Below the pieces are notes generated by a model. The model did no database searches and was not told where the DNA came from. It saw only the letters and a list, made by a program, of their open reading frames with translations. A stretch of DNA of 64,000 nt from Cyanidioschyzon merolae (lineage: Eukaryota): assembly GCA_000091205.1 (NCBI GenBank), contig AP006498.2; one strand, written 5' to 3'. How positions within the stretch are numbered: position 1 is the stretch's first letter; every line of letters starts with the position of its first letter. Made by a program: the position numbers and the translations under genes. Positions 3,950 through 60,600 of this stretch are shown in pieces.

Positions 3950-4545
3950 GCGCACGCGGCTGTTTCGTCTAGACTTTCACCTGAATTGTGTTCCATACCT
4001 GGGTTCGTTTCATCGTATGCTTTTTTTGCGGTTTAGAGCAGGTGTGTTCGAAGTGCGTTTACTTGAAGAAATATAAAACCCATGACATAGGTATGGACTT
4101 GCACGTCAGGGGTCCTGAAGGGCGATCATCGCGGGGGTTCGACCAGAAAACGAAACAATCCTCTCTTTGTCAACCATCGAGCGAAGCAGAGCAAGTGGCA
4201 AAGATGATGGTGATGATGATGATGATGAAGAGCGGAAATCCGTGAGACAAGGTGTCTACCCGACGGGACTGGAACGAGACTGTAGTGGCACGGAGGGAAC
4301 GAGTTCTAGCAATCCTTGCAAGGATGACTCCAAACAACGTCAATGCACGCATGAAGTTCGTGAAGTGATACTCCAACGCCGCTACCAATACGAGACGATG
4401 TCTTGTGTAGTGAAGACGAATTCCGCCGAGCTAACGCAATCCAACTTTGTGGGGCAGCTTCTCAGGCTCGAAGTGTGCCTCGATAAACTGAAAACGATAG
4501 CAGTTGACCGGTCATGAAAGGCTGCAGGCGTCTGCGCATGGGTAG
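3950..4545 (+). mobile_element. ~0.6 kb non-autonomous Fanzor/TnpB-derived element (family-2 copy: left end plus 3'-terminal coding remnant and right end)
   Basis: Its left part aligns with the left ends of the 11.8, 47.0 and 60.0 kb copies (cctgaattgtgttccatacctggg ... gttcgaagtgcg). Its right part encodes an acidic stretch plus a decayed RuvC-III region (gagttctagcaatccttg ... caggcgtctgc) homologous to nt 12100-12385. Confidence 0.45.
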
Positions 4546-5520
4546 TCATTCACTTTAGTATGTTGCTCAGAGAAGGACATTTGTGTTGCCATGACTTGGC
4601 GCTGGCGATGCGTCAAAGCTGATGATTATGGCGCTAAAGAATCCCGCCAGACGCCGTGCGTCAACAACTGGACCCGTTAGGCGGTAGGTCACCTGCAGGC
4701 GTGTTTTCCAGGGTCCAAGCATCTGCACTCGCACCAGCATGTCAGTGGGTGCAGGCACGCGCCACCCGATCAACGCCTCATAGAGCGGGTGCGCCGGCGG
4801 TAATATCATCTCTAGGAATCGACTGGAAACGGTACAGATGCGTACCGCTCGCAGGGTTACTTCCACGGCGGAACGTCTCCTGAAACGGGTAAGCACGCGG
4901 GTAGAGGGATAGGTGTTCCTTCTCACCAGCGGGTGCCAAGCAAAGGCCTGCGTCGCGCAACTGCGGTGCAATTCACAAACGTTGGCGGAGGGGAAATTCG
5001 CTCCCCAATATTCATCCTATCCGCAAAGTTTCTACAACGGGTCGCAGCACAAAGGCAGGCCTACATACGAAGACTCTCGGATCCCAGGATCACCACGAGA
5101 CGCGACCGCGCTGCAGGTGAACCACACCTCCAGCCGACATCCTCCGTGGCATGACACAGCAGCGCAGACTCCGTGCGACGTCCGCACCGGCAAGGCGGGC
5201 GCTCTGTCAGACGCTCACGGCAGACTCGGTGTGCACAACGGAACGTTCGCATTTACCAGTATCTCCGAGGGGCAGCATGGATTGTGGACGTTGATGTTAG
5301 GCGGCAAAATGGACGCATCCCCGATCACTGGTGTTCCATGACGTAATCAGAGATGCCTGGTCAGCATGAACGTTCTTTCGATCAAAAAAAAATCGCCCCA
5401 GAAACAGCTGCCCTATGGACGCAAACGAGGAAAACCCGCACACCAATCCATATCGCCAGCTTACAATCGCTAACACACATCACGCAAGGTGCTCCATCGG
5501 GCAATGTTGTGCGAATCCGA

Positions 5521-6858
5521 TCACGAGCTGTACCGGAGCTTTTCCTGCGTGATAGGTCCAATTTTCATGTGCCCTAGGGCATGATCGCTCGCGCTTTGCA
5601 CTAGCCGGTATCTGCGCAGGAACTCCGCCACGGTTTCCGCGACCTGTTCTGGTAGATCCTCGTGAACGCTATGTCCAGCTTGCGGCAAGATGACGACTTG
5701 AAATCGCCCCTGCATCTGAGCGATCATAAGCTCTCGATCCAGGTGATCGTGGCCGGCAAGCACAAGAACTTTGGGGGCGGCAACGCTGACAAAGCGCTTC
5801 GACATGCCGGTAAACCAGTCACGCCAGTGGATTTCCGTACATTCCAGCTGCGTACGCCATCGATAATGCTTATTTGGTGTTGATGTGCTCGTCGGCGTTG
5901 GCCCGTCTCCAGCCTCTACCGGTACAAGCTGAGCCGGCACCGAACACCGCGCAGACATGAGATTTCGCACGTGGCCCCCGCAAAAGATATACGAAATGGC
6001 ATCCTCCAGTGAAGTGAATTCTTTGCGCCTCGATGCCAGGAAGCTTTTCATGTAGGGCAAAGCCTGGAGGGCGCTACCCTCGACGACGTCAATTACAATG
6101 AGGCCGCTGAGCTGGGGAATTCTCCCGCTGGCGGCTAGCTGGACGGCAATGGCACCACCCATCGAATGTCCGACGAGCGCGAGCGCCGGGATCCGCTCGC
6201 GGCTTCCGAACAAAGCCTCCAGGACGTCCATGGCATCTTGGACCTGGGTAGCTGTCGACAGGTCCGACTCAGGCTGTACATTGAAGGTTTCTCCATGTCC
6301 ACGGGCATCGTATGCAATGACGCATAGCTCGGTGGCGGGAATTTGCTTTCGTAGAAAATGAACAAAAGCGGCCCATGCGAGTGCACTATGCCCACCGCCG
6401 TGAAGCAGCAACAGTGTTGGAATCGAAGGATCAACCGTAGACCCGCTGATGTAGACACAAAAACCCGGCCCAACGAAACGTTTCTCATCGAAAAATTGAT
6501 CCCACGTGAGCGGTGAATACTCGCTCCCTAGCGGGCAGGTTACACCGGTTGCTGGCCTCGCTGACTTGTGGCGAACGCGATCCCAGAGGTTCAGCGGCCC
6601 GCTCGGGTTCAGGCCAGCGCTGCGAGCAGTACGAGGCCGCGTCTGAGGCCCCATTGTCCCAGGAGACGTCTCTTGTATCGTTGAAGGCAGCGGCTGCGTG
6701 TCGAAGCTTTCAGAGTAGTCAGCCTTGCGATCCTCTCCTTCGTCCCAGGCGGGGAGCAGGTCGCCCTCAGTCGACGGTGAGGCCTCCCGCCCCTGTGAGG
6801 CAGACTCTGTACGCGAACCGCTCTCGCTGCTCTCTAGCACCGGAGTCAGAGGGTACAT
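5521..6858 (-). CDS. PPME1: protein phosphatase methylesterase 1 (PPME1)-like alpha/beta hydrolase
   Basis: Close match to the PPME1 pattern: SPLTWDQFFDEK, LLLLHGGGHSALAWAAF, nucleophile elbow GHSMGGAIAV, IDVVEGSALQAL, and C-terminal QAGHSVHEDLPEQVAE (catalytic His). Start set at the first ATG (MYPLTP); the track ORF begins with TTG at 6951. Confidence 0.8.
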   Translation of the reverse strand: MYPLTPVLESSESGSRTESASQGREASPSTEGDLLPAWDEGEDRKADYSESFDTQPLPSTIQETSPGTMGPQTRPRTARSAGLNPSGPLNLWDRVRHKSARPATGVTCPLGSEYSPLTWDQFFDEKRFVGPGFCVYISGSTVDPSIPTLLLLHGGGHSALAWAAFVHFLRKQIPATELCVIAYDARGHGETFNVQPESDLSTATQVQDAMDVLEALFGSRERIPALALVGHSMGGAIAVQLAASGRIPQLSGLIVIDVVEGSALQALPYMKSFLASRRKEFTSLEDAISYIFCGGHVRNLMSARCSVPAQLVPVEAGDGPTPTSTSTPNKHYRWRTQLECTEIHWRDWFTGMSKRFVSVAAPKVLVLAGHDHLDRELMIAQMQGRFQVVILPQAGHSVHEDLPEQVAETVAEFLRRYRLVQSASDHALGHMKIGPITQEKLRYSS

Positions 6859-8661
6859 TGCTACCGCTCCACAAAGCAGGTGCCTGCTCCAGCACAGCGT
6901 CAAGCTTTGCGCTGCCTTCGAGCGCTCTAGCAGAAAGCTCTCATGTATCAAGCGCTGGCAATCCGTGCGCAGGAGATTCGGGTTCGCAGCACCGTAATCT
7001 GAAACGAATCACTAGTTGGCAATTCGATAACAATTGATTTCCCTCTCTAAGCCCAGCGTTGATCACGGGGAAAAGTTTTCCGTATTTTCGAAGGTTTATC
7101 TTCTGGACGGAGGGAACCGCGAACCGGACGAGTCTGACGGGCTCGTGCTTCATGCTCCGCCCACTGGCGGGTGCAGAGGCGCGACCCGCGCAGCTCGTCC
7201 GCGACGCAGTCTCTTCTGAGACTAGGAGAGGTTACGCTGTATCTGGGCGTCGCCCTGGTCGCGATTGACTCGTAGACTATCGCTTTGCACTGTCGATGGA
7301 AAAACATCTGTCTGTCCAGCTTGCAATCTCCCAGAATGATGATGAATCCCGACCCTGTGTCGTGTGCACCACGCCTCGAGCCGACGCCATCTGTGGTACG
7401 GCAAAGCCCTTCTGCCCCCGTGCTAAGGCTGCATCCGCGCTACCGGCGCTACGGCGGGTGCTCAGGGCCGGCACTTGGCGCACGAAAGAACGCACAAAAC
7501 GACCAGTATATACGAGGAGAGGGAATGGAACTTGCAGGTACGGGGCGGCAGCCTGATGAATGCTTTCCAGAATACCAATGTTTATCTAGGAATCTGGGAT
7601 TGATAGTCAGTGTAAACGTTTTGTCAAACCGAAAAAAAACTGTCCCAGTAGAATGATCATTGCGTTTCACGATAGAAAATACTCCTTCGATGGGCCTGCA
7701 AAACGGGGTGTGCGGAGCAATGCATAGCAGCTCGACCCCGATAGCATCGGCAAAAGCTCGAACGCAACGGGAATAGAGAAATACCTCGTTGTCCAATAGA
7801 AGGACGTCGCCAGAAGTCAGGGGAAAGTCTTCAATCATTCGACAAAGTTGTTGGTGCTGTTGGATGAGGCATATCTACGAAGGAAACTGAGCCCGCCGAA
7901 TGAATCCACTGCAGCTACAACAGCTGTTGATGTCATCGTTCTCTTCGAGTTCGATCGTAAATACAACGGGCGCCCTGCTCCTCTAATACTCACTTACGCT
8001 CTGCCTATATCGTACGAAGCAAGTCTTATCGACTGAAAAAATGAACCGACGTTCCTGGGCTTTGTCTGGGGAGCGACGCTCCGGGAACACTGTCGTTACG
8101 ACTTTAGTGGAAGATGACCGTGCATGAAACCGCAATTATTTGTCCGCAACTGTATTCCAGTGTTTCCAGAATAACACGAACAGGTTGTTGAGAAACAGAG
8201 ACGTCTGTAGCGGCTAGTATCGTGGCTTTCGCTTTCCATAAAGTGATCAACGGTTCGTTCTCTACGATGGACCGCAAGCTGTCTTTACGATGATCGGTTT
8301 CTGGCGCGGAGCGCATCGTATTCTCTTTGTTTCAGTGCTCCTAAACCATCTGAGTACTGTGGTACGTCTAACCTGAAGGGGGAATGAAGCCCTCGATGCC
8401 TTGTTGCGTAAAGAATACGTATCCTACAAGCAATTCGTCTACCATCTATATACGGTACCTTGCATCGTTATTTCCATCGCCTGCTGGACACCGCGGCGAG
8501 GGCGAAACACACATGGGTTGCACCGCTCGTACGGTACGAATGGCAGCTTCTGGAGCCGCTCCAGCGTCCCGGCTGCATACTTGTTTCTGGTAACTCCGTA
8601 TTGCGCGGAACGACCCATTTACTCAAAGATATTTTTGGGTAACATCATGCTCATCCAGTAA

Positions 8662-11789: not shown

Positions 11790-12385
11790 CAGAACGAGTA
11801 CCGTGCTTTCGGCGGGATCGCTTATAGTCGTTCCCCTCAATTGTGGTCCATCTCCTGGGGCGTGTCGCTGTACGCTTTTTCGCGGCTCATAGCAGACGCG
11901 TTCGAAGTATACTGATTTTTAAAAAAATCTGAGGAAAAGTTATGGATAAGGTAGTCGAAGGATGCTGGGGGCCCGTCATCGACGAGTTCGATAAAAACGA
12001 AAAATCTTTTCCTCGTCGAGAATGGAGCGAAGAAGAGCAAGTGACGAAGAAGAAGATGACGATGAGAGATAGACGAGAAAAGGTTTTTGCCCAATGGGTC
12101 GATGACGAGACTGCAGTGACATAGAGCGCGCGAGTTCTAGCAATCCTTGTACTGGTCAGTTCCACCCGCGGCAAGACACGCATGGAGTTCGTGAACCGAG
12201 ACTTTGACGCCGTTACTCATATACGGATATGAGCGGTGCAGGAGAAGAGGCCCGAGAAGCTGACGAGAGCCAACTTCGTGGGGGAACCTCTCAAAGTTGA
12301 ATTGTATGAGGAGAAGTTGAAGCCAGTAGTAGCTGGCCGGTCAAAAAAGTCTGGCAGGCGTCTGCAGCTAGGTAGGTAACAAGTT
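11790..12385 (+). mobile_element. ~0.6 kb non-autonomous Fanzor/TnpB-derived element (family-2 copy)
   Basis: Left end is homologous to the long-copy left ends (catagcc ... ttcatttga block). It then jumps to the zinc-finger/RuvC-III coding region (EKSFPRREWSEEEQ ... KTRMEFVNRDFDAV ... ANFVGEPLKVELYEEKLKPVVAGRSKKSGRRL, with in-frame stops). It ends with the conserved caggcgtctgcag tail. Confidence 0.55.
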
Positions 12386-12798
12386 ACCTTACTATCGCGA
12401 AATGCTTTCGCTCCGCTGAGCCATGCAGTGCAGGCCTGTGCGATTCAATCACGGGCTTGGTGTACAATGTAGCTGAGCGATGCACGCTTGCAGGTATCGT
12501 GTCTTTTCGGTTTGCGGGCAAAGTCTTCTCGAGCGAGCGCGACTCGTTCGCGAAGAGCGCACAAAATGCACGCTCGTTTCCACAGCGGCCCGTCAGCAAA
12601 TGCAAGCACGAAAAAGAACAACGCTTACGCGAAGAGTGCCGCAAACTCATCTAGTTTCCGCAGCAGCCTGCCAACAAATCCCTGTACCTCCTTAGCGCAC
12701 AGAAGCCCGTAATTCGTGATTATTCGCACTGCAAGATGATTTGAATTGAGTCCGCATTCGCGACCGAGTTACGACTGCTGCCCGGTGACCAGTGCTCC

Positions 12799-28350: not shown

Positions 28351-29879
28351 ACTTTATTTCGATGACAAAACGTTTACATTGACCATGGATACCTGATTTC
28401 CGGGTGGGTGTTCGTAATCGAAAAGGCGTCCATCATGATGCACCCTATCTCCAAGCTCCGTTACGTATACTTCCTCTAGGATGTAATGGTCGTTTCGTAC
28501 GTTCAATCGTTCGTCAGGTGCCTGCCTTGCTGCACCCGCAATCGCAGCTATGCCGCTTGTGCAGATCCATCACGGAGGCAGAACGCCTTTGTCGCATCAC
28601 TGAGGGTGTCTTAACGAGGCGTGATTCATTCAACAAGGGGTCGGAGTACGTGATCATTCTGAGAGCCTGCATGCTGCGCAGACAGACCTTGTACCTGCGG
28701 CAGCGGGAAGCGACGTACTAGGAGTCCACTGCGACCAGGGCGATGCCCAGACACGCAGCATACCCGCTCCGAGCCCCAAAATAACCTGCGTTTCGGACGA
28801 GTTGCTCAGGTCTCGCTAAAGCACTCGCCAACGGGGGAGAGTACGACGAATTAGCCTACCAGACTTGTCCGGCGCGCAGGACCTTCCGCCAATAAGGTAA
28901 ACGTTCCACAGTATGAAAACCTTTTCCCTCTTTTACCGTTTATCGTAGTTGGGGAGAGAAACTGTCATCTCGTTGGCAATGACTCGTTTGTCTCTGCTCT
29001 TTGTTCCACGGCACTGATTTCGAACGGAATTGACAACAGCCGAAAGACACGGAGGGTCGCTGGAAAAAACATTGAAAGAAAACAAACCAGTCACAAACCA
29101 TTTATCACAGAACAACTATCTTGAAGCCGCACACACCACGCCCGCCTAAGAGGTCTAGTTTTTCCGGAGAAGCTCTAAAAATGGGTTAACGCGGGGTGTT
29201 CGGGCGATAGGAAGGAAGCCCACGACAAGGTCCTTGACCGCAATGCACGGAGGCGCGGAGGCAGTAGCACCAGAAAATATGGACGAGAGTTCTGAGCAGT
29301 CATCCGCCCCTCCCGAAACAACGCTGTAGGTTCGGGCACAAATACTGGATCAATCCTTGAATTCGGGCTCAGTTTAACCCTCTACCTTGGGTACCTACCT
29401 CAACTTTGGAAACAATCTCGGCGGATGCTTTGGAAGACGGCTGGCAGTATGTTCGCGATCGATGCTGGAACAAACGACTTGCCCGCCTATGTGTTTGGGG
29501 AGCGGATGCGAAGCCGCTGAAAAGGTGGTTTGCAGACTGTTCCCAGTGATTGAGGGGAGCTTCACGCGTCCGGCAAGATAAAGGTCGCATTCGAATCGAC
29601 CTTGACTAATGTACCTCTGATTCTATGCTAGCGCTGCGCCAAGCACTCAATGAACGACTGGAATGCGGGAGGCGCTGGTGGCATGTGCGTTCACACACCC
29701 CGTCGAGGGTACATCTAAATCGACAACGTATCTCTGGAGCACCGCAGCGTTACTCCTATTCCCTTGTGCGCTACGACTCTATAGGTTTCGCATCATGGAA
29801 TATTTGCGGGATAGCCTCGGAATTGAGCTACGAAATATCGAATTACCAGTAGAGTAAAGAGGAACTTATACAAGTGGAG

Positions 29880-32890: not shown

Positions 32891-33480
32891 ATGCATGATC
32901 ACGAAGGAGAGAGGCGGCTCCCAGGATATATCCTAACAGTCAAGTTTCTCCAGCGTGTCGTGCAGCGAAGACAAGCCTGCATCCCCAGACTGTACGAGCA
33001 CAAACTGACGACGAGACCCGATTCTACGTCGGGTGAACCACACCTCGAGCCGATGCCCTCTGGGGTATAGAAAAGCAGTTCTAGCTCGATGAACTATCTG
33101 CTCCAGCATTTAAGGTGCAAAGGCGGATACGGAACGGCAGGTACGAGGCACACCCGATAGGACTTATGAAACGACCAGAATATCCGAGAAGAAGTATAGG
33201 TAATGGAACTTGGAAGTAGGCTGTTTGATGGATAATTCACCGCACATTGGAAAACACAAAAAAGTAAGAAAAGAAAAATGCGCATAGTCGGAGAACGCTG
33301 GCCAAAGGAAACGTTTTGTTAATGAAAAAAATGCCGCCGTTGAAGGAAAACGTGATCTTGATATCTAGCATGTAGCTCTAATGTAAAAGTTGTATTTTCG
33401 TTAACTTCATAGCCAAGTATAGTTTTCAGTTCATTTGAGTTTCAAACCTCAAACATGTGTATTCAATTGTTTTGTCGCAG

Positions 33481-33488
33481 TATATAAC
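33481..33488 (+). promoter_or_regulatory. candidate TATA box ~55 bp upstream of the Fanzor-like ATG (33542)
   Basis: gcagtatataacag. Conserved in copy C (tgtgtataacag) but mutated in copy B (cagtatcgaacag). Confidence 0.25.
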
Positions 33489-33541
33489 AGAAGCGTTCCA
33501 GGAGCTTTCTTTTTCAAAAAAAAAACTAAAAAAGGAAAGTT

Positions 33542-35755
33542 ATGAAAAAGCAAGTCGACGATCCTGGAGGCCGAGGGTCGCCGGCTGCCAGAAAAAAAAC
33601 AAAAAACAGTGCCAAGTCCAGAAGAAAAGGAAAAGAAGAAGGACCAAAGGGGGAAGGGGGGAGACTCTACGTCGAAGGATGCAAGAAAGACGAATGTACG
33701 ACGAGATGGTGGTGAAAACCTTTCTTCATGGCCATATCAAGGATCCCTACAGGGAAAAGTTGCAAGACGCTATCAGAAACCGTGTCGACTCGTACTCCAA
33801 GAGTATTGTCAAGGCGTCGTCAGGACTGATGCATTTGGTACGGGAGATGTATCGCGACGTGACGCACATGGAAACGGTGGAGATTCCGGACGAGTTTTTC
33901 GATAAGAAGTTTATTCGTCAGCTGATGCTTGGTACAGAGGAAGCGCGGAGGGAAAATGTATGAGTGCATGCCCTCCACGAAAAACATCCCTTTTACAGCT
34001 TCAACGGTACTCGATACAAGGGTGACCGGGATATTTACAGCTATGGGGCGATGAAGTACCTCACGAATCTGAAGAATCCTTTGACAGTGAACCTCGAACG
34101 TTTCATGATACGCGCCGTGTTTGCACTCGATCCCGGGCATCTCTCCCAAAGGGATATGGGCGATTACCAATGGCATCACGAACAATCGCCGGCGTGTAGA
34201 TGGGATCGAATTTGTCGACAAGAAGGCGTCAAAAGAGATCACGAATGAAGCTTCTGTTATCCGTGCGGCTATACAAGTGCACCGTGCAGTTTTGGGGCTG
34301 GCGAATCCGACAGACAAGATATCAGAGTTGAAAAAAGATAAGGAAAGATACGATCGTCTCGTCCTACGGTATTTTGTGTTTTTGGACCGAGAGCTCGATC
34401 GCAAAGCGGAGATGAAGCTGAGCGAGGAAAAAAATGAAGAATGGGAGAGACGGAAGGCGTTCCTAATGGGCGAGCGCTTCAACGTGGTTCCGTTGGGCAA
34501 CATCAAGTCACATTTTGTGACTATCGACTCCGGCGTCCTTTACGGCATCATGACTGAGACCAGTCCCGAGTTCGATGTAAGGAGCACAGAGATCACCGCC
34601 GAAACCCGCGAGACGTACTGGAAGAATATCTTCAATTTCAAAGGGCTCAAAGTCAGCAAGAAAAAGGAATTCACTGGGTTGATCGAAAGCGATGGAGTAG
34701 CCATGTGTGTACACTATCTGCGGTTGTTGAAAGATCGTCCAGTTCTGCCCTCGGCTTCGCGCTCGGCGAAACATGAAGAAAACAAACAAGCGGATCCTGC
34801 GACGCAGAAAGTGCAGGAAAACGACTTTGTCGTTGGCGCGGACCCCGGAAACACAAATATCATATCCATCGCTGTATCCAAGCTTGCGGACGATGGTTCT
34901 GACGGTAACTTGCGTCAGAAACACATGCGTCTTCTGAGGTTCTCGAGCGCAAGAGACTAAAGAGAATCCGGAATAATGAATGTGCGGAAGAAAATTGAGA
35001 CATGGAATGCAGGAATAAAGGACCACTTGGAAGCTATGAGCGAGGTGACGAGCCGAGGAGCGGGCTTTCAAGCTTTTCTGAAATTCATGAAAGTTCGCGT
35101 TGCTCATTGGGAGGCGCTGTGGGAGGAGTATACAAAGCCTCGGTGGGCTCGTCTGCGTATGAATCTATACTGTGGGAAGCAGCGGGCGTTCGCGAACTTT
35201 TTCAATCAGTTGAGCGCCCTGAAGGTGGATGTGAGTCAGAGGCTCGTCGTAGCATACGGAGCAGGGCGCTGGAAGACCCAAAAAGGGTGTACACCAGCTC
35301 CAACGACGAGAGCGCACAAGGAGTGTGCACGGCGTTTCGTAACGATACCTGTAGATGAGTTTCGAACATCGTATACACACCACGAGCTGGATTGTACACT
35401 TCAGAGGGTCGAGATGGAAAAGTGCCAGAGGAGCCCTGAAGATATAATAAAGTATGGACCGCTGACGGAGGAGCAAATGGAAAGGAGGGCAAAAGTTCGG
35501 CGACTACTTGCATTAGTAAGTACAACCAATCATGGCAAGAAACGTATGGAATTCGTGAATCGTGACTTTGATGCCGCCATCAATATCAGGAAATGTGCGG
35601 TACTGGAGACGAGAGCTCCAGAGTGGACAAGAGAGAACTTTAATGGACAACCTCTCAAAGTCGAACTATATAAGAAAAAATTGAAACTAGTAGTAGGTGG
35701 ACGTTCCAAACAAACTAGGAGGCGTCTGCACGTCAGTTGGAGACGATTTGTCTAA
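33542..35755 (+). pseudogene. Fanzor/TnpB-like nuclease gene of copy A, disrupted
   Basis: Homopolymer frameshift after MKKQVDDPGG. In-frame TGA at ~33961. A +1 frame change inside 34121-34248 shared with copies B and C. In-frame TAA at 34958 shared with copy C. The 3' part (34976-35755) is intact. Confidence 0.7.
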
Positions 35756-35870
35756 GGCGCGTTTGCCGCCACTACGGTACACTGCTGGCAGCAACGTTTT
35801 TCATTTGAAAAACGTTTGGCGGCGAGCTGCTCATTTCCCACGGGCAGACACCTAAAGCGGGTCATCTGGT

Positions 35871-45568: not shown

Positions 45569-46904
45569 TGCACGAGGACATTGTGCCGTGGGGTGATACC
45601 TGGGGGAAACCGCGGGGCGACCCAAAAAATGGGCAGGTATAGACTCGCAATTCATACTGAGTGCACAGGGTCCAGAACCGCGCGAACAAGTGTGTCTCGG
45701 GGAAGCACGCTCGGTAGATGTACAGCGCCAAGCCATTCCACAGTTTTTGCCGAATAATCAGGAAGTTTCTCTGAATGTTTGCGTAGGTCGGCAGCCTTCA
45801 TGCGAGGTTGTGACTATCGCCGCTATGGAACGTGGACGTAAAGGCGGGATGCAGCACAACACAATGCTTATTCTCTGTATCGACACCGGTTTCGGACCAA
45901 AATGGAATGCTAGCAGCTCGCTCGGCTCCTTTTCTTTGATTTTCTCGAACTCGATTTCAGGTGTACAACCCCGGTAATCCAAGTACAGCAATAGAGACCT
46001 ATGTTTTCGAATTTAGAACTAGGATTCTCGGTCTTGTTTTCAGAGTGGCTCTTTCGATGCCTTGGGGCTGGAATTCGTCTCGCCATTAGCATCAATATCG
46101 TGCGCGACGCTTCCGACAGAGTGTTCGTCGCGGAACCGATACCATCATGCGATTCATATGTACGAGCTTGCACTCTTGTCAGTTCCGTAGGTGCGGCACG
46201 CTAAAATCATGCATTCGTCTGGTTCTCGATCGTTCTATTTCATGGCAACTCGTGGGCGCAGCAACCTCCGCGCCTGGATTGACGAGGAATCAAGTCGGCA
46301 TCGTCCTGTGACGACTGCTTCATCAGCTCATCCCAAGGTCCCATTGAAATTGTCACGTCAAAGAAGCGCTTCTTGCGGAGAGTGTACCACTGCTTTGCTC
46401 GAAGGTTGCGTAGTGGTATCGGATTCCATCGGCTCGGGCTCCAGCCATGGTTCTCCTGCCAGTACCTGTTTCATCACGGAAAACATCACGTTCCACGATC
46501 CCTTATCGATTGGAACTGTGCGCTTGCAGCAGACAGCGTACTCGCCCACAGGATCGTGCAGAAGAAGCACGATATCCCAGGGTACGGCAATGTGCGGAGA
46601 AAAGCAGGGCATTGACGGGAGTTTTCTGTGCGCATCGAGCGCATGCACAGAGCGATGGAGCGCGTCCTCTCGTGCTACAGGGCGGTGCCCGAGATGCAGT
46701 GGACAACATGGCAACTCCTGACAACAGCCAAGCGGTACCGCCGCGAAGGACGCACCGAGTCTGTGTACGAAGAAGATGAAAACGTCAAGAAAAATGTTGA
46801 TCAAAAATGTCCTCTGAGCACACAGTGCGTCAATATTGCCAAGATAATGTTTCGGGACCATAGGCTGTATAGATATTCAGCCACACACGGGCGCCCCTCA
46901 GTCT

Positions 46905-47430
46905 TTTTCGACCGGCCTCCTGCTATCGGTTTCATTTTCTCCCTGCACATTTCGAGTCTGAGAGGTTGTCCAACTAAGCTAGATCACTCGGCTCAGCTCC
47001 TGGGGTCTCGTCTTCTGCACCACACATCCTTTGATATTGATGGTGGCGTTGAAGTCTCGGTACGCGAGCCCCATGCGTTTCCTGCCTCTGGTTGAACTCA
47101 TCAACGCAGGGATTCCCCGAACGCGTGCACTCTTTGTCACTACAGTCTCGTCATCGCCTCGTCGGGCAAACACTTGCTCTCGCTTCTCTCATCTCTTCTT
47201 CTTCGTTCGATGGTCGACGAGCAGAGGGTTTTTCTGATTTTTGTCGAGCCCGGCGAAACCGGGCGATCCAGCATCCCCAGCTGCCATTTCCATACCTTTT
47301 CCTTGGGTTTTTTATTTCTTTGAATCAACGCACTTGGAGCACATCTGCTATAAACCGCGAGAAAGCATTTGATGAGACACTCCCGGGCGTGGAACACACC
47401 TGAGGGAAAAACTGAACGCATCGTACGGGG
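46905..47430 (-). mobile_element. ~0.55 kb non-autonomous Fanzor/TnpB-derived element (family-2 copy)
   Basis: Minus-strand ORF 46979-47173 encodes KRMGLAYRDFNATINIKGCVVQKTRPQE (RuvC-III). Nucleotides 46905-47050 align with the 3' ends of copies B and C (ctgagaggttgtccaac ... cacatcct-tgatattgatgg). The left-end block at 47330-47430 aligns with the 60.5 kb and 11.8 kb copies. Confidence 0.55.
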
Positions 47431-47627
47431 CTCTCATGAGTCATGGAGGCCGCATCGGATCGCGTCGCACGAGAGGCTAGGGCAGGGCGCATGTCCGCTT
47501 CTACCCATTAGATCCATAAATATACACCATGGTATAGTTTGGTCCAGGGGCAATCTTCTGCCACACCGGGTCTCCGCGCACGTCCGCTTCAGATTCATCG
47601 GTTTCCGCTGAGCGTTCCTGTCCCGCA

Positions 47628-49046
47628 ATGACACAGGAGTCGGTGGTCGAAGCGGAAGCCCGGCTCGAGGCCGGACTCGCCGTTTCCGACAAGGTAATGA
47701 ACTTCTCTCTCGGAAAGGCGACAGCTGTACCGTCGTCAAAACACGTCCATACGGCTGCGGTCTCCGCACAGACTGTCGTCGACGACGACGACGAGGACGC
47801 CGACGACGTCACTGCTACGTCCACGTCTGAAAAGGGACCAAAGAAGCCTCATAAAAGACGAGGAAAACGAGGTGGACGGCGAAAAGGTGCCAGTGAGAAC
47901 GGCGGAGGCGACAGCACTGTTGCTTCGTCGCCAGTACCACAGCCGCTTCCGAAGGCGACTTGTAGCACAGAACTCTGTGGCATCTCGCGGCTCTTTCCTG
48001 AGGGCGTCTACCCGGCTGGCGAGGTTCAGGACTATGTCGGAGACCAAGCTTATCGTACAACTCAAGCCGAAGTACGTGAACGGGAACGACTCTCGTTCGA
48101 TATGATTGGAAAAGCGCGAAAAGCAGCTGAGGTCCACCGGCGCGTGCGCACGTACATCCGGCCTCGAATTCAGCCCGGGATACGACTGGTTGATCTTTGT
48201 GAAGAGCTGGAAAACGCTACCCGGACACTCGTTGAGGAAGATGGCTTGGAAGCGGGTATAGCGTTTCCAACAGGTTGCTCGTTGAACCACGTGGCAGCGC
48301 ATTACACCCCGAACCGGGGCGACGACACCCGACTCCAGCACACAGACGTGATGAAACTGGACTTTGGCGTGCATGTGGACGGAATCATTATGGACTGTGC
48401 CTTTACCATTGCGTTTGACGAGCGCTACGAAAAGCTACTAGAAGCTGTGCGTGAAGCGACCAATGCGGGTATTCGAGCAGCAGGGATCGATGTGCGACTC
48501 AGCGAGATGGGTTCCATCATTCAAGAGGTCATGGAGAGCCACGAGATCGAGCTGGACGGCAAAGTGATGCCCATCCGCTCGATCCGTAACCTAAACGGAC
48601 ACAGTATTGACCGGTACCGCATCCACGCGGGTAAGACGGTGCCCATTGTGAAGAGCAGTGTGCCGGGGAAAATGGAGGAAGGCGAATTGTATGCCATTGA
48701 GACGTTTGGTTCTACTGGGCGCGCATACGTCACCGAGAGCGGAGAATGCTCCCATTACATGAAAGTATTCGATGCGTCGCACGTGCCGCTGAGGATGCCG
48801 CGTGCACGCCAGTTATTGAGTACGATCAACCGCCATTTTGGAACGCTGGCTTTCTGTCGTCGCTATCTGGATCGACTCGGTGAGGAGCGATACCTCATGG
48901 CACTGAAGCACTTGTGTGATGTGGGTATCGTGCAGCCGTATCCGCCATTGTGCGATGTGCCGGGTTCTTTGACAGCACAGTTCGAGCACACGATTCTGCT
49001 GCGGCCGACTGGTAAGGAAGTGCTAACTCGCGGCGACGACTTTTGA
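47628..49046 (+). CDS. METAP2: methionine aminopeptidase 2
   Basis: N-terminal poly-acidic/poly-basic block (DDDDEDADD; [16 protein letters not shown]). The catalytic domain matches MetAP2 almost motif-for-motif: [69 protein letters not shown] start verified. Confidence 0.92.
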
Positions 49047-49243
49047 TGCTGGCACCGAACACCGTTCGCAGTCGGACGATGCCGACCGTGTACAGTAGTG
49101 GCGGCAACCGCGCCCTAGACGAAACGTCTCTAACTGACGTGCAGACGCCGCCCTGCCGTTTTCGACCGGCCACCTACTACTGCTTCCACCTTCTTCTCAT
49201 ATAGTTCGACTTTGAGAGGTTGTCCAACAAAGTTTTCTCTTGT

Positions 49244-51300: not shown

Positions 51301-52032
51301 ATAGCTTTCCTTTTTTTTTGGAAAAGAACACTCTTTGGACGCGTCTGTTCGATACTGCGAAAAAAAACTCGACTAGACTTGTTTGAGGGTTGAAACAAAA
51401 ACGAACTGAAAGACTATACTTGCCTATGAAGTTCACGAAAATACAACTTTTACACGAGAGCTAGACGCTAAGGATCACGATTACGTTTCCCTTCAACGGT
51501 GGCATACGCGTCGTGTCTCATGACTGCCCGATCCCCCAGATGCGCTCATCGAGCGCGATGCATGCGCTGCGCGAGACGCCTCACCGATCCATGAAGGACA
51601 CGTGTCCGACACCCCGTCTTGGCACATGCGTGTTCGCATCGCACTGCAGCCAAAATAACGTATCGTAGATCGGAAACGCACGTAGAATGAACTCTTGCTA
51701 TAGGTTCTGTCGCTGGCGCCGACGCTACTGCCCATCGCAGTACCGCCCTGACATACAAGGGGATGCAGGGGCCTGGCACGATACCCCTCGACGCTTCTAT
51801 CAAAAGCGTAGCGTTCTCTGCGGCTTACCGTTGTGTGGTTAAGGTATGCATCACTCTTCTCAATAGGATTTTCGTTAGTTTTATTGATCATAAACAAACA
51901 AGGTACGGTAGGATTCCTGAACACGGATACAGGTTTATTTCCTCTGCTTGTTATGTATGCTGCACGGTCGCTGGAACAGTGTCCGATTGTATGGGTGCTG
52001 CGTATCGAGGCTTGTCGCGCGCTCCAAGCACG

Positions 52033-54414: not shown

Positions 54415-54449
54415 GACACTCTGGAAACCTCGTTCGCCACGGTAGCACC

Positions 54450-56950
54450 GCCACAGCCGTTCTAAGTCGGACGACGCCGACGGTATCCCGTAGTGGCGGC
54501 AAACGCGCCTTAGACAAATCGTCTCCAACTGACGTGCAGACGCGTCCCCGTCTTTTTCGACCGGCCACCCACTACTGCTTCTAACTTTTTCTTATATAGT
54601 TCGACTTTGAGAGGTTGTCCAACAAAGTTCTCTCTTGTCCACTCTGGAGGTCTCGTCTCCAGCACTGCACATCTCCTGATATTGATGGCGGCATCAAAGT
54701 CACGATTCACGAATTCCATACGTTTCTTGCCATCACTGGGTGTACTTACTAATGCAAGTAGTCCACGAACTTTTGCCCTCCTTTCCATTTGCTCCTCCGT
54801 AAGCGGTCCATACTTTATTATATCTTCAGGGCTCCTCTGGCACTTTTCCATCTCCACTCTCTGAAGTGTACAACCCAGCTCGTGGTGTGTATACGATGTT
54901 CGAAACTCATCTACAGGTATCGTAACGAAACGCCGTGCACACTCCTTGTGCGCTCTCGTCGTTGGAGCTGGTGTACACCCTTTTTGGGTCTTCCAGCGCC
55001 CTGCTCCGTATGCTACGACGAGCCTCTGACTTTCATCCTCCTTCAGGGCGTTCAACTGATTGAAAAAGTTCGCGAACGCCCGCTGTTTCCCACAGTATAG
55101 ATTCATACGCAGACGAGCCCACCGAGGCTTTGTATACTCCTCCCACAGCGCCTCCCAATGAGCAACGCGAACTTTCATGAATTTCAGAAAAGCTTGAAAG
55201 CCCGCTCCTCGGCTCGTCACCTCGCTCATAGCTTCCAAGTGGTCCTTTATTCCTGCATTCCATGTCTCAATTTTCTTCCGCACATTCATTATTCCGGATT
55301 CTCTTTAGTCTCTTGCGCTCGAGAACCTCAGAAGACGCATGTGTTTCTGACGCAAGTTACCGTCAGTACCATCGTCCGCAAGCTTGGATACAGCGATGGA
55401 TATGATATTTGTGTTTCCGGGGTCCGCGCGAACGACAAAGTCGTTTTCCTGCATTTTCTGCGTCGCAGGATCCGCTTGTTTGTTTCCTTCATGTTTCGCC
55501 GAGCGCGAAGCCGAGGGCGGAACTGGACGATCTTTCAACAACCGCAGATAGTGTACACACATGGCTACTCCATCGCTTTCGATCAACCCAGTGAATTCGT
55601 TTTTCTTGCTGACTTTGAGCCCTTTGAAATTGAAGATATTCTTCCAGTACGTCTCGCGGGTTTCGGCGGTGATCTCTGTGCTCCTTACATCGAACTCGGG
55701 ACTGGTCTCAGTCATGATGCCGTAAAGGACGCCGGAGTCGATAGTCACAAAATGTGACTTGATGTTGCCCAACGGAACCACGTTGAAGCGCTCGCCCATT
55801 AGGAACGCCTTCCGTCTCTCCCATTCTTCATTTTTTTCCTCACTCAGCTTCATCTCCGCTTTGCGATCGAGCTCTCGGTCCAAAAACACAAAATACCGTA
55901 GGACGAGACGATCGTATCTTTCCTTATCTTTTTTCAACTCTGATATCTTTTCTGTCGGATTCGCCAGCCCCGAAACTGCACGGTGCTCTTGCATAGCCGC
56001 ACGGATTACAGAAGCTGCATTCGTGATCTCTTTTGACGCCTTCTTGTCGACAAATTCGATCCCATCTACACGCCGGCGATTGTTCGTGATGCCGTTGGTA
56101 ATCGCCCATATCCCTTTGGGAGAGATGCCCGGGATAGAGTGCAAATGCGGCGCGTATCATGAAACGTTCGAGGTTCGTTGTCAAACGATTCTCCAGATTC
56201 GTGAGTCACTTCATCGCCCCATAGTCGTAAATATCCCGGTCATCCCTGTACTGGGTACCCTCGAAGCGGAATTCCGCGAAGTTTTCGTGGAGGGCATGCA
56301 CCCGCTCATTTTCCATCCGCGCTTCCTCTGTACCAAGCATCAGCTGACGAATAAACTTCTTATCGAAAAACTCGTCCGGAATCTCCACCGTTTGCATGTG
56401 CGTCACGTCGCGATACATCTCCCGTACCAAATGCATCAGTCCTGACGACGCCTTGACAATACTCTTGGAGTACGAGTCGACGCGGTTTCTGATAGCGTCT
56501 CGCAACTTTTCCCTGTAGGGATCCTTGATATGGCCATGAAGAAAGGTTTTCACCACCATCTCGTCGTACATTCGTCTTTCTTGCATCCTTCGACGTAGAG
56601 TCTCCCCCCCTTCCCCTTTGGTCCTTCTTCTTTTCCTTTTCTTCTGGACTTGGCACTGTTTTTTGTTTTTTCTGGCAGCCGGCGACACTGGGCCTCCAGG
56701 ATCGTGGACTTGCTTTTTCATCACTTTCCTTTTTTTGTTTGTTTTTGAAAAACAACGCTCTTTGATCCCTTCTGTTATACACAGCAAAAAATCAATCGAG
56801 CATTTTTGCTTGAGGTTTGAAACACAAATGAACTGAAAACTGTACTTTGCTACGACCTCAACGCAAACACAACTTTTACAGCTGAACAAGACGCTTCTGA
56901 TCGCGATTGCGTCTCCCTTCAACGGCGACGGGCGCTTCGTGTCTAATGCC
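54450..56950 (-). mobile_element. Fanzor/TnpB-like transposon, copy C (~2.5 kb)
   Basis: Collinear with copy A end to end. It shares the left-end block (cattagacacgaagcg ... ccgttgaagggagacg) with copy B and the right end (ggcgcgtttgccgccactacgg ... gtcggcgtcgtccgacttagaacgg) with A and B. Confidence 0.8.
54510..56721 (-). pseudogene. Fanzor/TnpB-like nuclease gene of copy C, disrupted
   Basis: Intact N-terminus MKKQVHDPGG ... KKRKRRRTK ... MQERRMYDEMVV. Private TGA at ~56206. The same +1 frame change and TAA as copy A. Intact 259-aa RuvC-II/ZnF/RuvC-III segment (54510-55289). Confidence 0.7.
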
Positions 56951-57809
56951 TGCCAGACAAGGATGTGCGCGTATCGGGCGCACTCTATAGAACAAAGAAC
57001 AGATACTGACCATTAAATCGCCACGAGATAACGATTTCTTTCCCCTCTGCGATAAACGTTGAGACGGGGAAAACTGTCGGTACTTTCGAAAGTTTACCTT
57101 CTAGACGCAAGGTCCCGCGGATTGCACGAGTCTCCCAGGCTCGTGCTTCACGCTCCGCCACTGGCAGGTGCTTTCGTGACATCTGAGCAACTCGTCCGTA
57201 ACGCACTCCACTCTGGGACTTGGAACGGGTAGCCGGCGTCTGGGCGTTGCCCATGATGCAGTGGGCTCCTGGTATATCGCGTTGCGCTGCCGCAGGCACT
57301 AGCTCAGTCTGCGCAGCTTGCAGACTCCTAGAACGACTATGAGCCACGACTCCGTTTCAGGTGAAGCGTTCCTCGGTCCGACGCCCTCGGAGGTATGGCA
57401 AAGCCGTTCAGTCTCCGTGATGCATCGGCATCAGCGATATAACCGCAATTGCGGGTGCTCAAAGCAGGTAATCGGCGCTCGATAGAGCATAAGAATCGAC
57501 CATTACATCCGAAATGATTTATGGGTCATCTAACTTGAGGGTAAGTGCATCATGATGGATGCTTTCCCGAAACCCAACATCCATCCATCCATCCATTCTG
57601 CAATCTGGGATCCATGGTCCACGAAAACGTTTTGTCACTGTAAAAAAATCAGCGCTGCCGCCGTTGCAGAGCGCCTCCAAGTTTCGCCAAAAACTCGTTG
57701 CCAAACGAGCGCTGCTATTGTTCTAGTTTACCGCTGTTGTCGTTGTTGTTGCCGTTGCTGGTAAGATTTCGTTAGGGCGCTGGTGCCTCAAGTTGGCGCC
57801 AACCAGGGC

Positions 57810-59087
57810 ATGTCACTGGGGTCGGCTGGTCGCCCGGACAGCAGAGAGAAAGTGTCTCAGATTGAAGGAAGCGCTATTCTTTTAGTAGGTGCGCGTGGTG
57901 CAGGGAAACGAACCATTCGCTCGATTCTGCTCGGAGCTCCAAGCGCTTCAGCAGTAGATAGCCCCGTCCAGTCAGGTCAGCTGAGCTCGCTCAGACTCTT
58001 CGGGTCGGTTGTGCTTTGCCTCCTGGACTTGGAGCTTCCAATAAGCGTCGAGACTGCGTCACAGCTGCGGGGATTCCTTCGAACCGGCAGGGTACTCTCG
58101 CTGGTCTTCATTGTCGATGTCAGTTCGAGCGAGGGAGCCAGCGCCGACAGGAACTGGATACGGGCGGTGACGGAGCTTACGGTTGCAAAGAACTTGCCCG
58201 CACTGCAGCGATACATCATTCTACACAAAACCGACATGCTGCCAGACGGGTCGGCCGCTGCGCAGCTGCGTCGGCAAGCGCGAGTCTGCTGTGAGGCCGG
58301 CTATCTCGACTCGAGTCGCTGCTTCAGGACGTCCATCTGGGACTCGTCTCTTTACCACGCATGGTCGACCATTGCTCGTTCGCTGGTACCGGACATTGCA
58401 CAAGTCCAGGAGGCGCTGCAAGCGCTCAGCCGGGACCCGTCTGTGCGCCGTATCGTGCTCTTGGAGAGCACCTCTCTGCTCGTGCTCGGGTACGCAGGGG
58501 CGCCTCTGTACGGACGACCATCGCTAGAGACGGAACCGAAAGCGGCTTCATCACCTGTGAGTCGATGGCTTGCCTGGTTCGGTTCAAGTGAGACCCTTCC
58601 TCGTGGGCAGCCTCAGGCTGGGTCAGAGCGTCCTGCCGAGGAACTCGCTGACCCTACCCAGAGCACGAAGCAGCGCAGTCGTTGGCCCTGGCGGAAACTG
58701 GAACGCTGGTCTAGCGCACCGCTACTGGACCGCTCGGAACTCGTGGCGATCTCTGAGCCGTTTCGACTCAAGGATGCCGAGGCGTTCGAAAAAATGAGCC
58801 TCATCCTCAAGCGCCTAAAACTCGCATGTATGCGCACAGGGACCATGTTTCAGATGCTTCGCGTGCGGAAGCAGCACGGTGATGCGCTCCTTGAGGCGTT
58901 TACCCCACATACGTTGATTTTGGTGCATCTTCGCGCGTCGGAAAATAGAGAACAGGAGCAGAAGCGCATTCTTTCTGCGATGCGGGAAACCTTGAAACCA
59001 GCGTATCGTAGTATTGCAAAATTAGAGCACACTGCAGAGGATGTTCCGTGGAGTCTTTCGGACAGTTCCAGAATCGGTGCTTTCTGA
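57810..59087 (+). CDS. RagA/Gtr1-family small GTPase
   Basis: Degenerate P-loop ILLVGARGAGKRT. The RagA/Gtr1 signature CFRTSIWDSSLYHAWSTIARSLVPDIAQVQEAL matches [25 protein letters not shown] of RagA. The C-terminal roadblock-like half is extended. Start set at the first ATG (MSLGSAG); the track starts at GTG 57783. Confidence 0.55.
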   Translation: MSLGSAGRPDSREKVSQIEGSAILLVGARGAGKRTIRSILLGAPSASAVDSPVQSGQLSSLRLFGSVVLCLLDLELPISVETASQLRGFLRTGRVLSLVFIVDVSSSEGASADRNWIRAVTELTVAKNLPALQRYIILHKTDMLPDGSAAAQLRRQARVCCEAGYLDSSRCFRTSIWDSSLYHAWSTIARSLVPDIAQVQEALQALSRDPSVRRIVLLESTSLLVLGYAGAPLYGRPSLETEPKAASSPVSRWLAWFGSSETLPRGQPQAGSERPAEELADPTQSTKQRSRWPWRKLERWSSAPLLDRSELVAISEPFRLKDAEAFEKMSLILKRLKLACMRTGTMFQMLRVRKQHGDALLEAFTPHTLILVHLRASENREQEQKRILSAMRETLKPAYRSIAKLEHTAEDVPWSLSDSSRIGAF

Positions 59088-60024
59088 GAGCGTAGGACCT
59101 GCATGACTCCCGCACGCGCAAGGACTCGGCTTTCTACACGACGTTGCGGCGTTGAAGCGTGACGAACGTTCGTTAGGAACGCGTGCCCCCTGGTGCAGCG
59201 ACTTTTGCTTGATTGTACTTCGGGAAACTTGGTCGCTTCGAAACCAGTTGGCGTTGCCGCTTCCTCCTTACCGAGTGTCAAGCTTTGCATCGTATGTCAG
59301 TGTTGTCGACGAAAGGTTCATGCACCACGTACACATCATGCCGAACCTTACTCCTTAAAGAACAATAGGAAACTGCCGATGCGCGATGTCCATGCAACGG
59401 TTGCCGCTACGCCAGTCCCAGCGAGATGGCCACGCTTTCGCACTAGTTCTTGTGAATTGCATGACAATAAAGGCTTTGCGCACGGCATTTTCTGGAATGT
59501 CGCGCAGGCTGCAATACCTGGGCAATGAAGACGCCCAGCGCGATTCGCGTGCTGCACTCACGCCAGTCGCCTGTGTCCGTAGAAAGCTGTCGATGGGACG
59601 CGCTTTCGCAGTCGGTGGAGGGATACCCGAGTCAGCTCCGTGGAGCCATATCCTTTTCAAGGCATATCCCTCGTGCTTCTCTTTGTCAAGTTTCCACCGG
59701 TCCTGTTCGCAGTTCCGTCGAGCGTCCTCGCGTAGAGCGTCGAGGAAAACGTGCACTCTCCGCGAAATGCTTTTCGAGAAACCCAACGCTCACTGAACCT
59801 GCTGAACGAATCATACGAATATGTATGGAAAGCGTGTGACGGTGAGTCTGCGTGGCCCTAGACCCAGGGCAGTCAGTCATCGTATCCAGGTGTTTTCTGT
59901 GCTGTGGAGACAATGAATTGAACCAGGGAAATCCCGGATGCCTGATATGCGTACCATCACTAGAGCAAAAAACATTCTATGACGATAAAGCGTTTGTATA
60001 CACACAGACCTCCAGATGTTTCCC

Positions 60025-60600
60025 GGCCTTTTTTTGACCGAACCCTCTGATATCCGTTTGGGGTTTTCCCTGCAGACTTCGAGCTTGGGAAGCCACCCAG
60101 CGAATTTAGAGGGTGTCAGGTCCTCAGTCCTCGTCTTTAGCACCACAGATCGTGTGATATTGACTGCACCGTGAAAGTCTGGGGTTCACGAACTCTATGA
60201 GTCTATTGCATCTAAATGAACTCACGTTTGCAGGGATTCCCCTATCTTTTGCACTCTATGACACTAGAGTCTCGTCATTGCCACGTTTGGCAAACATCTG
60301 TTCTCGTCGCTCGTCGGTCTCCCGTTTCCCACTTCTTCTTCTGCTTCGTCAATAGCGCTATATCCCTCTGTTCTCGACGAGACGAGGATTTTTATCGTTT
60401 CTTTTTCAAGCACCCGGCAATGGTAGTCATCCAAGATGTCTGACTTGCATGTCTATACCTTTCCCTTTGATTTTTTATTTCTTCAAATGAATGCACTTTG
60501 AATACATCGGCTATGAGCCGTGGAAAAGCATATGGTGACATGCATCTGGCGTGGAACGCAATTGAGTTGAAATACGATAATCACCCGTGCGTGCATGCAG
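60025..60600 (-). mobile_element. ~0.57 kb non-autonomous Fanzor/TnpB-derived element (family-2 copy)
   Basis: Reverse complement of 60100-60200 encodes EFVNPDFHGAVNITRSVVLKTRTEDLTP (RuvC-III region). Nucleotides 60230-60590 are collinear with 47090-47430 of the 47 kb copy, including the left-end block. Confidence 0.55.

Follow-up and report, generated by a model that had tools for sequence, protein, structure and literature searches.

Short, internally deleted derivatives of the Fanzor1 family CMe-1 in a 64-kb stretch of the Cyanidioschyzon merolae genome

The DNA analysed here, referred to as the window, is a stretch of 64,000 nucleotides from the red alga Cyanidioschyzon merolae (contig AP006498.2 of assembly GCA_000091205.1). 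It is intron-poor, has a GC content of ~55% and carries genes for SNAP, for MFS and UAA transporters, for MetAP2, for an M13 peptidase, for Gtr1/RagA and for a Myb protein. Four collinear repeats of ~0.6 kb, S1 to S4, lie in intergenic positions of the window, together with three longer repeats (copies A to C) and several pieces related to the element TE-N2_CMe (Table 1). A sequence-only reading of the window had taken the four short repeats for non-coding, internally deleted derivatives of a Fanzor element, whose ends and guide-RNA region would be under selection for mobilisation in trans. The derivation is borne out by our analysis: the repeats belong to one family made from two blocks of the Fanzor1 family CMe-1A, and the four are old, dead, internally deleted copies from this known family. 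The proposed selection is considered below.

Anatomy of the short elements

CMe-1A is a Fanzor1 family of C. merolae with ~150 copies that show ~80% identity to a consensus of 3169 bp; it is without terminal inverted repeats and was left unclassified (Bao & Jurka 2013, PMC3627910). Comparison of the consensus, taken from supplementary file 2 of that paper, with the window by blastn revealed 85–87% identity over 2.5–3.2 kb for copies A to C, which at this level of identity are members of the published family. Their open reading frames (ORFs) carry the Fanzor motifs ADPGN, VDEFRTS and NRDFDAAINI, and the C-terminal ORF of copy C matched the Pythium Fanzor1 PUl-1 across RuvC-II in a BLASTP search (E=8e-6). 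Pfam gave no match for the ORF pieces of the long copies or for their metagenome homologues, PDB, queried by sequence with one ORF and with a profile built from ten sequences, returned no Fanzor or TnpB match, and the precomputed Pfam annotation consisted of DUF8286 only, and weakly. Membership in Fanzor is thus argued from the motifs, the one BLASTP match and the literature.

Alignment of the four short elements with MAFFT confirmed that they are collinear, with a mean column identity of 71%. When each was compared with the whole window by blastn, pairwise identities were 65–70% over 410–570 bp (E 1e-15 to 1e-49), and the 3' ~200–250 bp of each matched the 3' ends of the three repeats of ~2.5–3.2 kb. 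A profile of S1–S4 found two matches only in CMe-1A with nhmmer, one at 786–1006 (E=7e-35) and one at 2833–3093 (E=6e-59), the latter block reaching back to ~2790–2812 at weaker similarity in a MAFFT alignment with the consensus. A blastn match to the consensus was also obtained for each of the nine short copies described below; among S1–S4 the best was that of S2, with 78% identity over 2840–3085. That is, a short element consists of CMe-1A ~786–1010, a GA-rich junction, CMe-1A ~2790/2830–3093 and a private tail of ~55 nt. The four repeats are real and lie near the places where they had been reported; the boundaries drawn at the time, however, stopped ~50–75 nt short of the 3' end, at 'caggcgtctgc', and began 15–35 nt too early at the 5' end.

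In the CMe-1A consensus the ATG lies at 906 and the stop codon at 3108. The 5' block of the short elements comprises ~120 bp directly upstream of the ATG, the ATG itself and ~35 codons of the basic N-terminus. In the profile alignment, the element start (TATAGTCTTTCACC) falls on CMe-1A 786 and 'GGCTCATAGCCGATGTATTCAAAGTGC' on ~846–880, just 5' of the ATG. The stretch 'ctcatagcc-atgtat...cattcatttga' had previously been aligned with 'cttcatagccaagtatag...' of the long copies, which the profile alignment places ~60 nt out of register; the wrong register arose because the true counterpart upstream of the ATG has diverged in the long copies of the window. The parental left end, which had been thought to be kept, is absent, as the short elements begin 785 bp from the start of CMe-1A and ~140 bp from that of the long copies that consist of the Fanzor core only.

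The deletion junction is a low-complexity tract rich in GA or GAT, whose length varies between 8 and 46 nt, and the 3' coding block behind it covers the last ~90–100 codons. This block had been described as a zinc-finger/RuvC-III remnant. The NRD motif of RuvC-III (2913–2933) is indeed kept, but both cysteines (2745–2789) are inside the deleted part, as are RuvC-I (2193) and the DEFRTS motif of RuvC-II (2709–2726). A Fanzor1 protein is not encoded by the short elements: the RD segment of RuvC-III is all that is left of the motif set, and the frames contain stops. In agreement with the earlier description of the coding parts, several in-frame stops are present in each of the four window copies, and the peptides EKSFPRREWSEEEQ, RMEFVNRDFDA, FVGEPLKVELY and GRSKK occur in frame 1 of S2.

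Past CMe-1A 3093 the elements end in the private tail, which reads approximately TGT.TATAC.TAC.CT.CATGGTCGCGAAAC.TTTTT.G.T.C..TGAC and for which neither strand of CMe-1A gave a significant match; its end aligns loosely with GGAGACGTTTTGTCTAG around the parental stop codon. This family-specific tail replaces the final ~75 nt of CMe-1A, which contain the stop-codon region, the right end and two hairpins, GTAGTGG..CCACTAC and GCCGCCA..TGGCGGC, so the view that the right end is retained has to be given up as well. Both CMe-1A 1–785 and ~3094–3169 are absent in eight of the nine copies; the exception is copy N3, which retains the 5' region (37–937).

Other readings of this anatomy were discarded. 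The peptide 'VDDETAVT' could be taken for a remnant of RuvC-II (VDEFRTS), implying a second deletion; it aligns with LTEEQME (2812–2835) in MAFFT, which leaves one deletion. A derivation of the private tail from an inverted TE-N2 piece, as it occurs at copies N3 and N5, gave no nhmmer match, and a 5' terminus 'TATAG' common to the short elements and the core falls away because core-only copies really begin at ~645.

As to their position, S1, S3 and S4 are arranged head-to-head with a neighbouring gene at a distance of 110–270 bp from its start codon. The spacers are 3856–3968 for SNAP, with the 5' end of S1 ~110 bp from the likely ATG of this divergent gene, 47417–47628 for MetAP2, with S3 210 bp from the ATG at 47628, and 60579–60852 for an ORF at 60852–62246.

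Table 1. Location and make-up of the short elements, the long copies and the TE-N2-related pieces (window positions, or locus and positions for N1–N5)
Feature	Position	Strand	Length	Blocks or match
Short element S1	3968-4595	+	628 bp	5' untranslated region (UTR)-like 3968-4092; ATG and N-terminal remnant 4093-4197; GA/GAT-rich junction 4198-4243; C-terminal (RuvC-III) remnant 4244-4538; private tail 4539-4595
Short element S2	11823-12421	+	599 bp	5'UTR-like 11823-11941; N-terminal remnant 11942-12043; junction 12044-12074; C-terminal remnant 12075-12368; tail 12369-12421
Short element S3	46829-47417	-	589 bp	5'UTR-like 47294-47417; N-terminal remnant 47190-47293; junction 47182-47189; C-terminal remnant 46884-47181; tail 46829-46883
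Short element S4	59955-60579	-	625 bp	5'UTR-like 60457-60579; N-terminal remnant 60350-60456, start codon mutated to ATA; junction 60306-60349; C-terminal remnant 60009-60305; tail 59955-60008
Short element N1	L022:11348-11965
Short element N2	L023:5370-5968
Short element N3	L017:1182-1805
Short element N4	L013:1369-1953
Short element N5	L009:3390-4005
Long copy A	33335-35810	+		CMe-1A 703-3165, 87%
Long copy B, core-only	51557-49088	-		CMe-1A 648-3137, 85%
Long copy C, full composite (TE-N2_CMe-like 5' part and Fanzor1 core)	57637-54475	-		CMe-1A 4-3145, 85%
Solo TE-N2-like	28360-29006	+		CMe-1A 1-640, 81%
Solo TE-N2-like	7626-7001	-		CMe-1A 4-628, 78%
TE-N2 fragment	5374-5114	-		CMe-1A 10-269, 68%
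TE-N2 fragment	33220-33017	-		CMe-1A 84-282, 77%

Copy number, insertion sites and decay

Joint Genome Institute metagenome contigs were scanned with the short-specific pattern ACGAGACT-N2-AGTG-N23-AATCCYTG. The scan returned 25 stretches, one of which is a chance match, whereas the other 24 are all short elements and represent nine loci. They comprise near-identical population variants of S1–S4 (98–99.8%, flanks included) and five new paralogues, N1 to N5. All nine copies are collinear and have the junction in common. The 5' boundary is at 786 in seven of them; N4 starts at ~868, and N3 is collinear with CMe-1A back to position 37 and so has the TE-N2 part as well as the 5' end of the core. 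Pairwise identities among the nine amount to 62–71% without substructure, and identities to the family consensus to 76–83%. In the 281-column 3' block, 30 diagnostic positions were found, at which a base common to at least seven of the nine short copies is absent from the four long sequences compared. Mean identity in this block is 69% between short copies, 64% between short and long copies and 89% between long copies. The star-like divergence and the diagnostic positions indicate a single origin, in which one diverged master spread in one burst and its copies then decayed.

Judged from their sequences, the short elements are a separate non-autonomous subfamily of the CMe-1 Fanzor1 family. A second, more diverged subfamily with an extra acidic insert had been postulated; the subfamily is upheld by the diagnostic positions, but the insert is nothing other than the GA/GAT-rich junction tract. 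An intact master of this subfamily, for which a search had been recommended, did not come to light: no long element with short-type sequence was present among the 24 true pattern matches, 38 homologous proteins and three further loci. Inverted TE-N2 fragments (CMe-1A ~255 down to 210 or 84) directly follow N3 and N5 (L017:430–1806; L009 / L015:11313–11983), and a further one is found 520 bp downstream of S1 (window 4595–5374). N3 is bracketed by inverted TE-N2 sequence and has TE-N2 in direct orientation on its 5' side.

The flanks of all nine short elements are unrelated, and similarity falls to background (~0.3) right outside the element. This identifies the copies as independent insertions, as the sequence-only reading had supposed. 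A host gene family or a segmental duplication would account for the repetition itself and for nothing more; it is refuted by the flank comparison, the frames are broken without codon-position constraint, and no counterpart of S3 is seen at its syntenic site, so its probability is next to nil. The MetAP2 protein of the window recurs with identical sequence solely on contigs of JGI and ENA metagenome assemblies and of a Logan assembly of a public sequencing run. Its best named relative is that of Cyanidiococcus yangmingshanensis (73% identity); the genome GCA_041825655.1 gives 86% over 76% of the length, and Galdieria comes next with 67%. The gene order TACC - MSC - MetAP2 - M13 peptidase - RagA is identical in the window (35871–59087), in C. 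yangmingshanensis (L034) and in GCA_041825655.1 (L032, L033). The MetAP2-M13 spacer measures 584–590 bp in the relatives as compared to 2987 bp in the window, where it holds long copy B (2470 bp), and the M13-RagA spacer 0.9–1.4 kb as compared to 3.3 kb, the insert being long copy C. Between MSC and MetAP2, 0.55–1.3 kb in the relatives stand against ~6 kb in the window, S3 included. The syntenic loci of both relatives gave no match to the hidden Markov model of the short family or to CMe-1A. Long copies B and C are lineage-specific insertions, and S3 is most likely another one, although it makes up just a fraction of the ~5 kb by which its spacer is longer. The absence of S4 in Cyanidiococcus is only suggestive, as the recovered locus stops 88 nt into the next gene, too short a piece to establish the orthology of that gene. 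The extra ~5 kb at 41.7–46.8 kb of the window, which contains several ORFs, is likewise lineage-specific.

To what extent the short copies have preserved anything was assessed at the levels of coding, sequence and structure. In the retained coding block, changes of the long copies relative to the CMe-1A consensus are distributed over the three codon positions as 22/15/49 (p=1e-5), a bias indicative of selection on the protein during the divergence of the long copies. The corresponding numbers are 130/164/159 (p=0.10) for the short copies relative to their own consensus and 26/15/29 (p=0.09) for the short consensus relative to that of CMe-1A, the latter pattern suggesting at best weakly that the lineage of the progenitor was once coding. 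The start codon is lost in three of the nine copies. When pairwise identity was determined in 30-column windows for the five copies not chosen by pattern, values ranged from 0.53 to 0.77 with a mean of 0.65, and none exceeded the permutation threshold. The last ~60 nt were significantly low (0.43–0.49), making the 3' tail the least conserved part. The earlier impression that the termini are preserved in every copy is therefore not supported, as they are not better kept than the dead coding part.

The claim of a selected guide-RNA region fared no better. For the nine copies together, RNAalifold gave a fold of -26.6 kcal/mol across 665 columns; its covariation term is penalising (+2.8), so that no covariation is indicated. 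The last 141 nt of S1–S4 are no stabler than dinucleotide shuffles (z of +1.5, -0.6, +0.8 and -1.2). A subterminal 3' hairpin, GAGACG..CGTTTC, looked plausible by eye and was rejected, as no more than 48.5% of cells pair, a value matched by shuffled and slid controls. Rfam, searched at gathering thresholds, and ARAGORN detected nothing in the window. For the parent, five long copies were compared for diversity at third codon positions over the final 300 nt of the ORF. The values, 0.18–0.26, are no lower than in the rest, and in this comparison of low power nothing points to a constrained RNA that overlaps the retained block. Nor is a structured RNA established by the long-range 3' helix GTAGTGG/CCACTAC of the parent, in which G>A changes are uncompensated; the folding z-scores are -2.9, -1.0 and -1.2.

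Taken together, the short elements decay neutrally, and no constraint on coding, sequence or structure is detectable. Selective keeping of the terminal structure or of a guide-RNA region is thus unsupported by these tests, and the likeness of the copies is simply inherited from one master.

Origin of the short elements

The short elements are probably an old non-autonomous subfamily of the CMe-1 DNA transposon family, derived from a single progenitor, copied in trans and left to neutral decay. A progenitor lineage that had already diverged by ~20% from the CMe-1A consensus would have lost ~1.8 kb of its ORF (consensus 1010 to 2790/2830), comprising the REC region, RuvC-I, RuvC-II and the Cys motif, and would have retained ~120 bp 5' of the ATG, ~35 N-terminal codons, the last ~90–100 codons with RuvC-III and a short tail of its own. 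The resulting unit of ~0.6 kb would then have been copied to at least nine intergenic sites. Since it encodes neither nuclease nor transposase, the copying machinery must come in trans. After their spread the copies would have decayed neutrally to about 80% of the consensus. We infer that the elements moved as DNA by the machinery that moves CMe-1, which may be Helitron2-like to judge from the ends of the parent, and that they have no present function.

Several observations weigh against this scenario. Both parental termini are missing from the short elements, so it is unclear what the trans machinery would recognise. Terminal inverted repeats are absent, and comparison of the flanks at the boundaries revealed no clear or consistent target-site duplication; the termini are fuzzy, and decay of ~20% may have erased short duplications. 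The family is represented by only nine copies, and the pattern supplied four of the five new ones, which biases both copy number and motif conservation. Furthermore, spacer length makes a clean case for long copy B and a weaker one for S3, and absence at the syntenic sites is only partly informative, as neutral DNA is hard to recognise at ~75% coding identity and the case rests mainly on spacer length.

The possible connection to Helitron2 comes from the parent. According to Bao & Jurka (PMC3627910), Helitron2 elements are characterised by an asymmetric inverted repeat and a hairpin at the 5' end, by a 3' asymmetric inverted repeat that lies upstream of a hairpin, and by insertion next to T-runs. 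Positions 5–14 of CMe-1A (GACAAAACGT) are the exact inverse complement of positions 3098–3107 (ACGTTTTGTC), a length of 10 nt that is reached in 2 of 2000 shuffles. The 5' end of CMe-1A contains the palindrome AAACGTTT, and GC-rich hairpins are located near the 3' ends of both the TE-N2 part and CMe-1A. The TE-N2 hairpin CTTTCCCCC..GGGGGAAAG shows one compensatory pair of changes (C>G/G>C), in the copy on L017/L026. A T-run lies a few nt 5' of four out of five independent TE-N2/CMe-1A 5' ends, the sites including the ends at window 28360, 57637 and 7626 and at L027:3088. These Helitron2-like ends went unreported by the describers of the family (PMC3627910), and on their basis CMe-1 may be assigned to Helitron2, an assignment that is our own. 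The parent is without a transposase gene, and a RepHel gene was not encountered. From this set of features, the short elements keep only a degenerate 3' repeat motif (GAGACGTTTT.GT); there is no T-run upstream of them, and the parental 3' hairpin and 5' end are missing too.

Alternatively, the short elements could be MITE-like (miniature inverted-repeat transposable element) or solo-guide-RNA 'ghost' elements, whose ends and guide RNA (ωRNA) region are selected for mobilisation or retention by Fanzor in trans. There is a precedent in Spizellomyces, whose ORF-less Fanzor1 ghosts of ~550 nt have retained the ωRNA region together with inverted repeats (Saito et al. 2023, PMC10432273). Moreover, the retained pieces are the segment 5' of the parental ATG, which may hold a promoter, and the 3' end of the ORF, a region that overlaps the ωRNA in TnpB and some Fanzor elements, and the Fanzor frame is still open across the 3' block in the consensus of the short family. 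However, the short elements lack the parental right end and the region behind the stop codon, which contains the ωRNA scaffold in SpuFz1 (PMC10432273). What stands in its place is their least conserved part, inverted repeats and an Rfam match are missing like covariation and excess stability, and third-position diversity does not drop over the final 300 nt of the parental ORF, which gives no sign of a constrained RNA in the retained segment. This makes selection of ends and ωRNA region very unlikely. Even less likely is a guide-only satellite that is transcribed from the segment upstream of the ATG, should this be a promoter, with the private tail as scaffold and the flank as guide, and that is copied or retained by a Fanzor acting in trans. 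If true, a eukaryotic RNA-guided homing system would be parasitised by elements that have neither a nuclease nor the parental termini.

The head-to-head arrangement of three of the four window copies, 110–270 bp from the start codons of SNAP, MetAP2 and the ORF at 60852, would fit exaptation, that is retention of the elements for a promoter or UTR function in neighbouring genes. Yet a compact genome forces surviving insertions into short spacers, and three out of four is not significant. MetAP2 has no short element upstream in two related genomes, and no block is conserved above the family average; we rate exaptation lower again than the guide-based proposals. Retrocopying of an aberrantly spliced or deleted Fanzor transcript would explain why the unit extends from ~120 nt upstream of the ATG to near the stop codon, resembling a plausible transcription unit, and why both parental DNA termini are missing. 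Against it speak the lack of a poly(A) tail, the 3' tail being T-rich instead, the position of the junction in GA-rich low-complexity sequence with no splice-site pair established, the one private tail common to all copies, and N3, which unlike a transcript has the parental 5' region back to consensus 37. Its probability is smaller still than that of exaptation. The account of a non-autonomous DNA transposon subfamily remains the one that we favour.

Comparison with known systems places this subfamily more precisely. Like the copies of CMe-1A, from two collinear pieces of which they are built, the short elements lack terminal inverted repeats and show ~80% identity to their own consensus. The only short relative named in PMC3627910 is TE-N2_CMe, which is 635 bp long, is identical to the first 635 bp of CMe-1A and represents a different segment (1–635) from those found in the short elements; the ~0.6 kb subfamily is undescribed in that paper, which is the one against which its novelty is set. 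The same 5'-shortened and internally deleted anatomy is seen in CRe-1/2/3 of Chlamydomonas reinhardtii, Fanzor1 elements that are 5'-truncated and internally deleted and were classified as non-autonomous Helitron2 (PMC3627910). CRe copies, however, keep the 3' end of their family, whereas the short elements are without the parental 3' hairpin and terminus. With the Spu-1 ghosts of Spizellomyces punctatus, which have 30-nt inverted repeats like the full element and a strongly conserved ωRNA-like region of 75 nt (Saito et al. 2023, Nature 620:660, PMC10432273), the short elements share that they are ORF-less Fanzor1 relatives of ~0.55–0.6 kb that outnumber intact elements; they differ by having neither inverted repeats nor an ωRNA-like region and by being visibly derived from coding sequence. 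MITEs and the palindrome-associated transposable elements (PATEs), non-autonomous relatives of IS200/IS605, are likewise short, non-coding, multicopy, intergenic and derived from a DNA transposon, but terminal inverted repeats, subterminal palindromes shared with the parent, a clear target-site duplication and parental ends are all wanting in the short elements. By these defining features they are neither ghost or solo-ωRNA elements nor MITEs.

The presence of a nuclease-less Fanzor1 derivative at nine or more sites shows that spread does not require a Fanzor gene in cis, which was already implied by the ghosts of Spizellomyces and the deleted CRe elements of Chlamydomonas. In addition, an undescribed non-autonomous subfamily joins the small transposon catalogue of Cyanidioschyzon-type red algae. 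Elements without parental termini, next to a parent with Helitron2-like ends, may provide a modest test case for what moves Fanzor1 elements.

Long copies and TE-N2-related sequences

With three Fanzor copies, four short elements and the TE-N2 pieces, the window is unusually transposon-rich for a compact genome. The ORF of copy C is interrupted by a frameshift and a stop. Copies A and C are 96% identical over 1.8 kb and have an in-frame TAA in common, and an identical 1-nt insertion frameshift is present in copies A, B and C near CMe-1A 1490 (CTCGATCCCGGG as compared to CTCTACCCGGG in the consensus). The copies were dead before a recent duplication or gene conversion.

Long copies without the 640-bp TE-N2 segment start at ~645–703. 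Two independent core-only copies (window 51557; L030:9675) start at CMe-1A ~645, at a GCGCG-N7-CGCGC palindrome that follows right after the TE-N2 part, and CMe-1A thus looks like TE-N2 joined to a separately bounded Fanzor core. At the other end, homology between long copies runs ~13 nt beyond the end of the published consensus (..GAA.GGC.GT.GG.GGTG; window 49060–49090, 54455–54475 and 35810–35830). A 3' variant, TCCGACT..GAACGG, is common to copies B and C and to those on L030 and L031, and is unlike the consensus and copy A. Just before RuvC-I, a 79-bp unit (CMe-1A 2117–2195) encodes acidic repeats of the type KHEE.KEA.PATQEV.DND.VV. It occurs two to four times in tandem in some long copies (L029:10540–10620; L030:11221–11375; L031:10426–10652), and still more units are found in many metagenome homologues.

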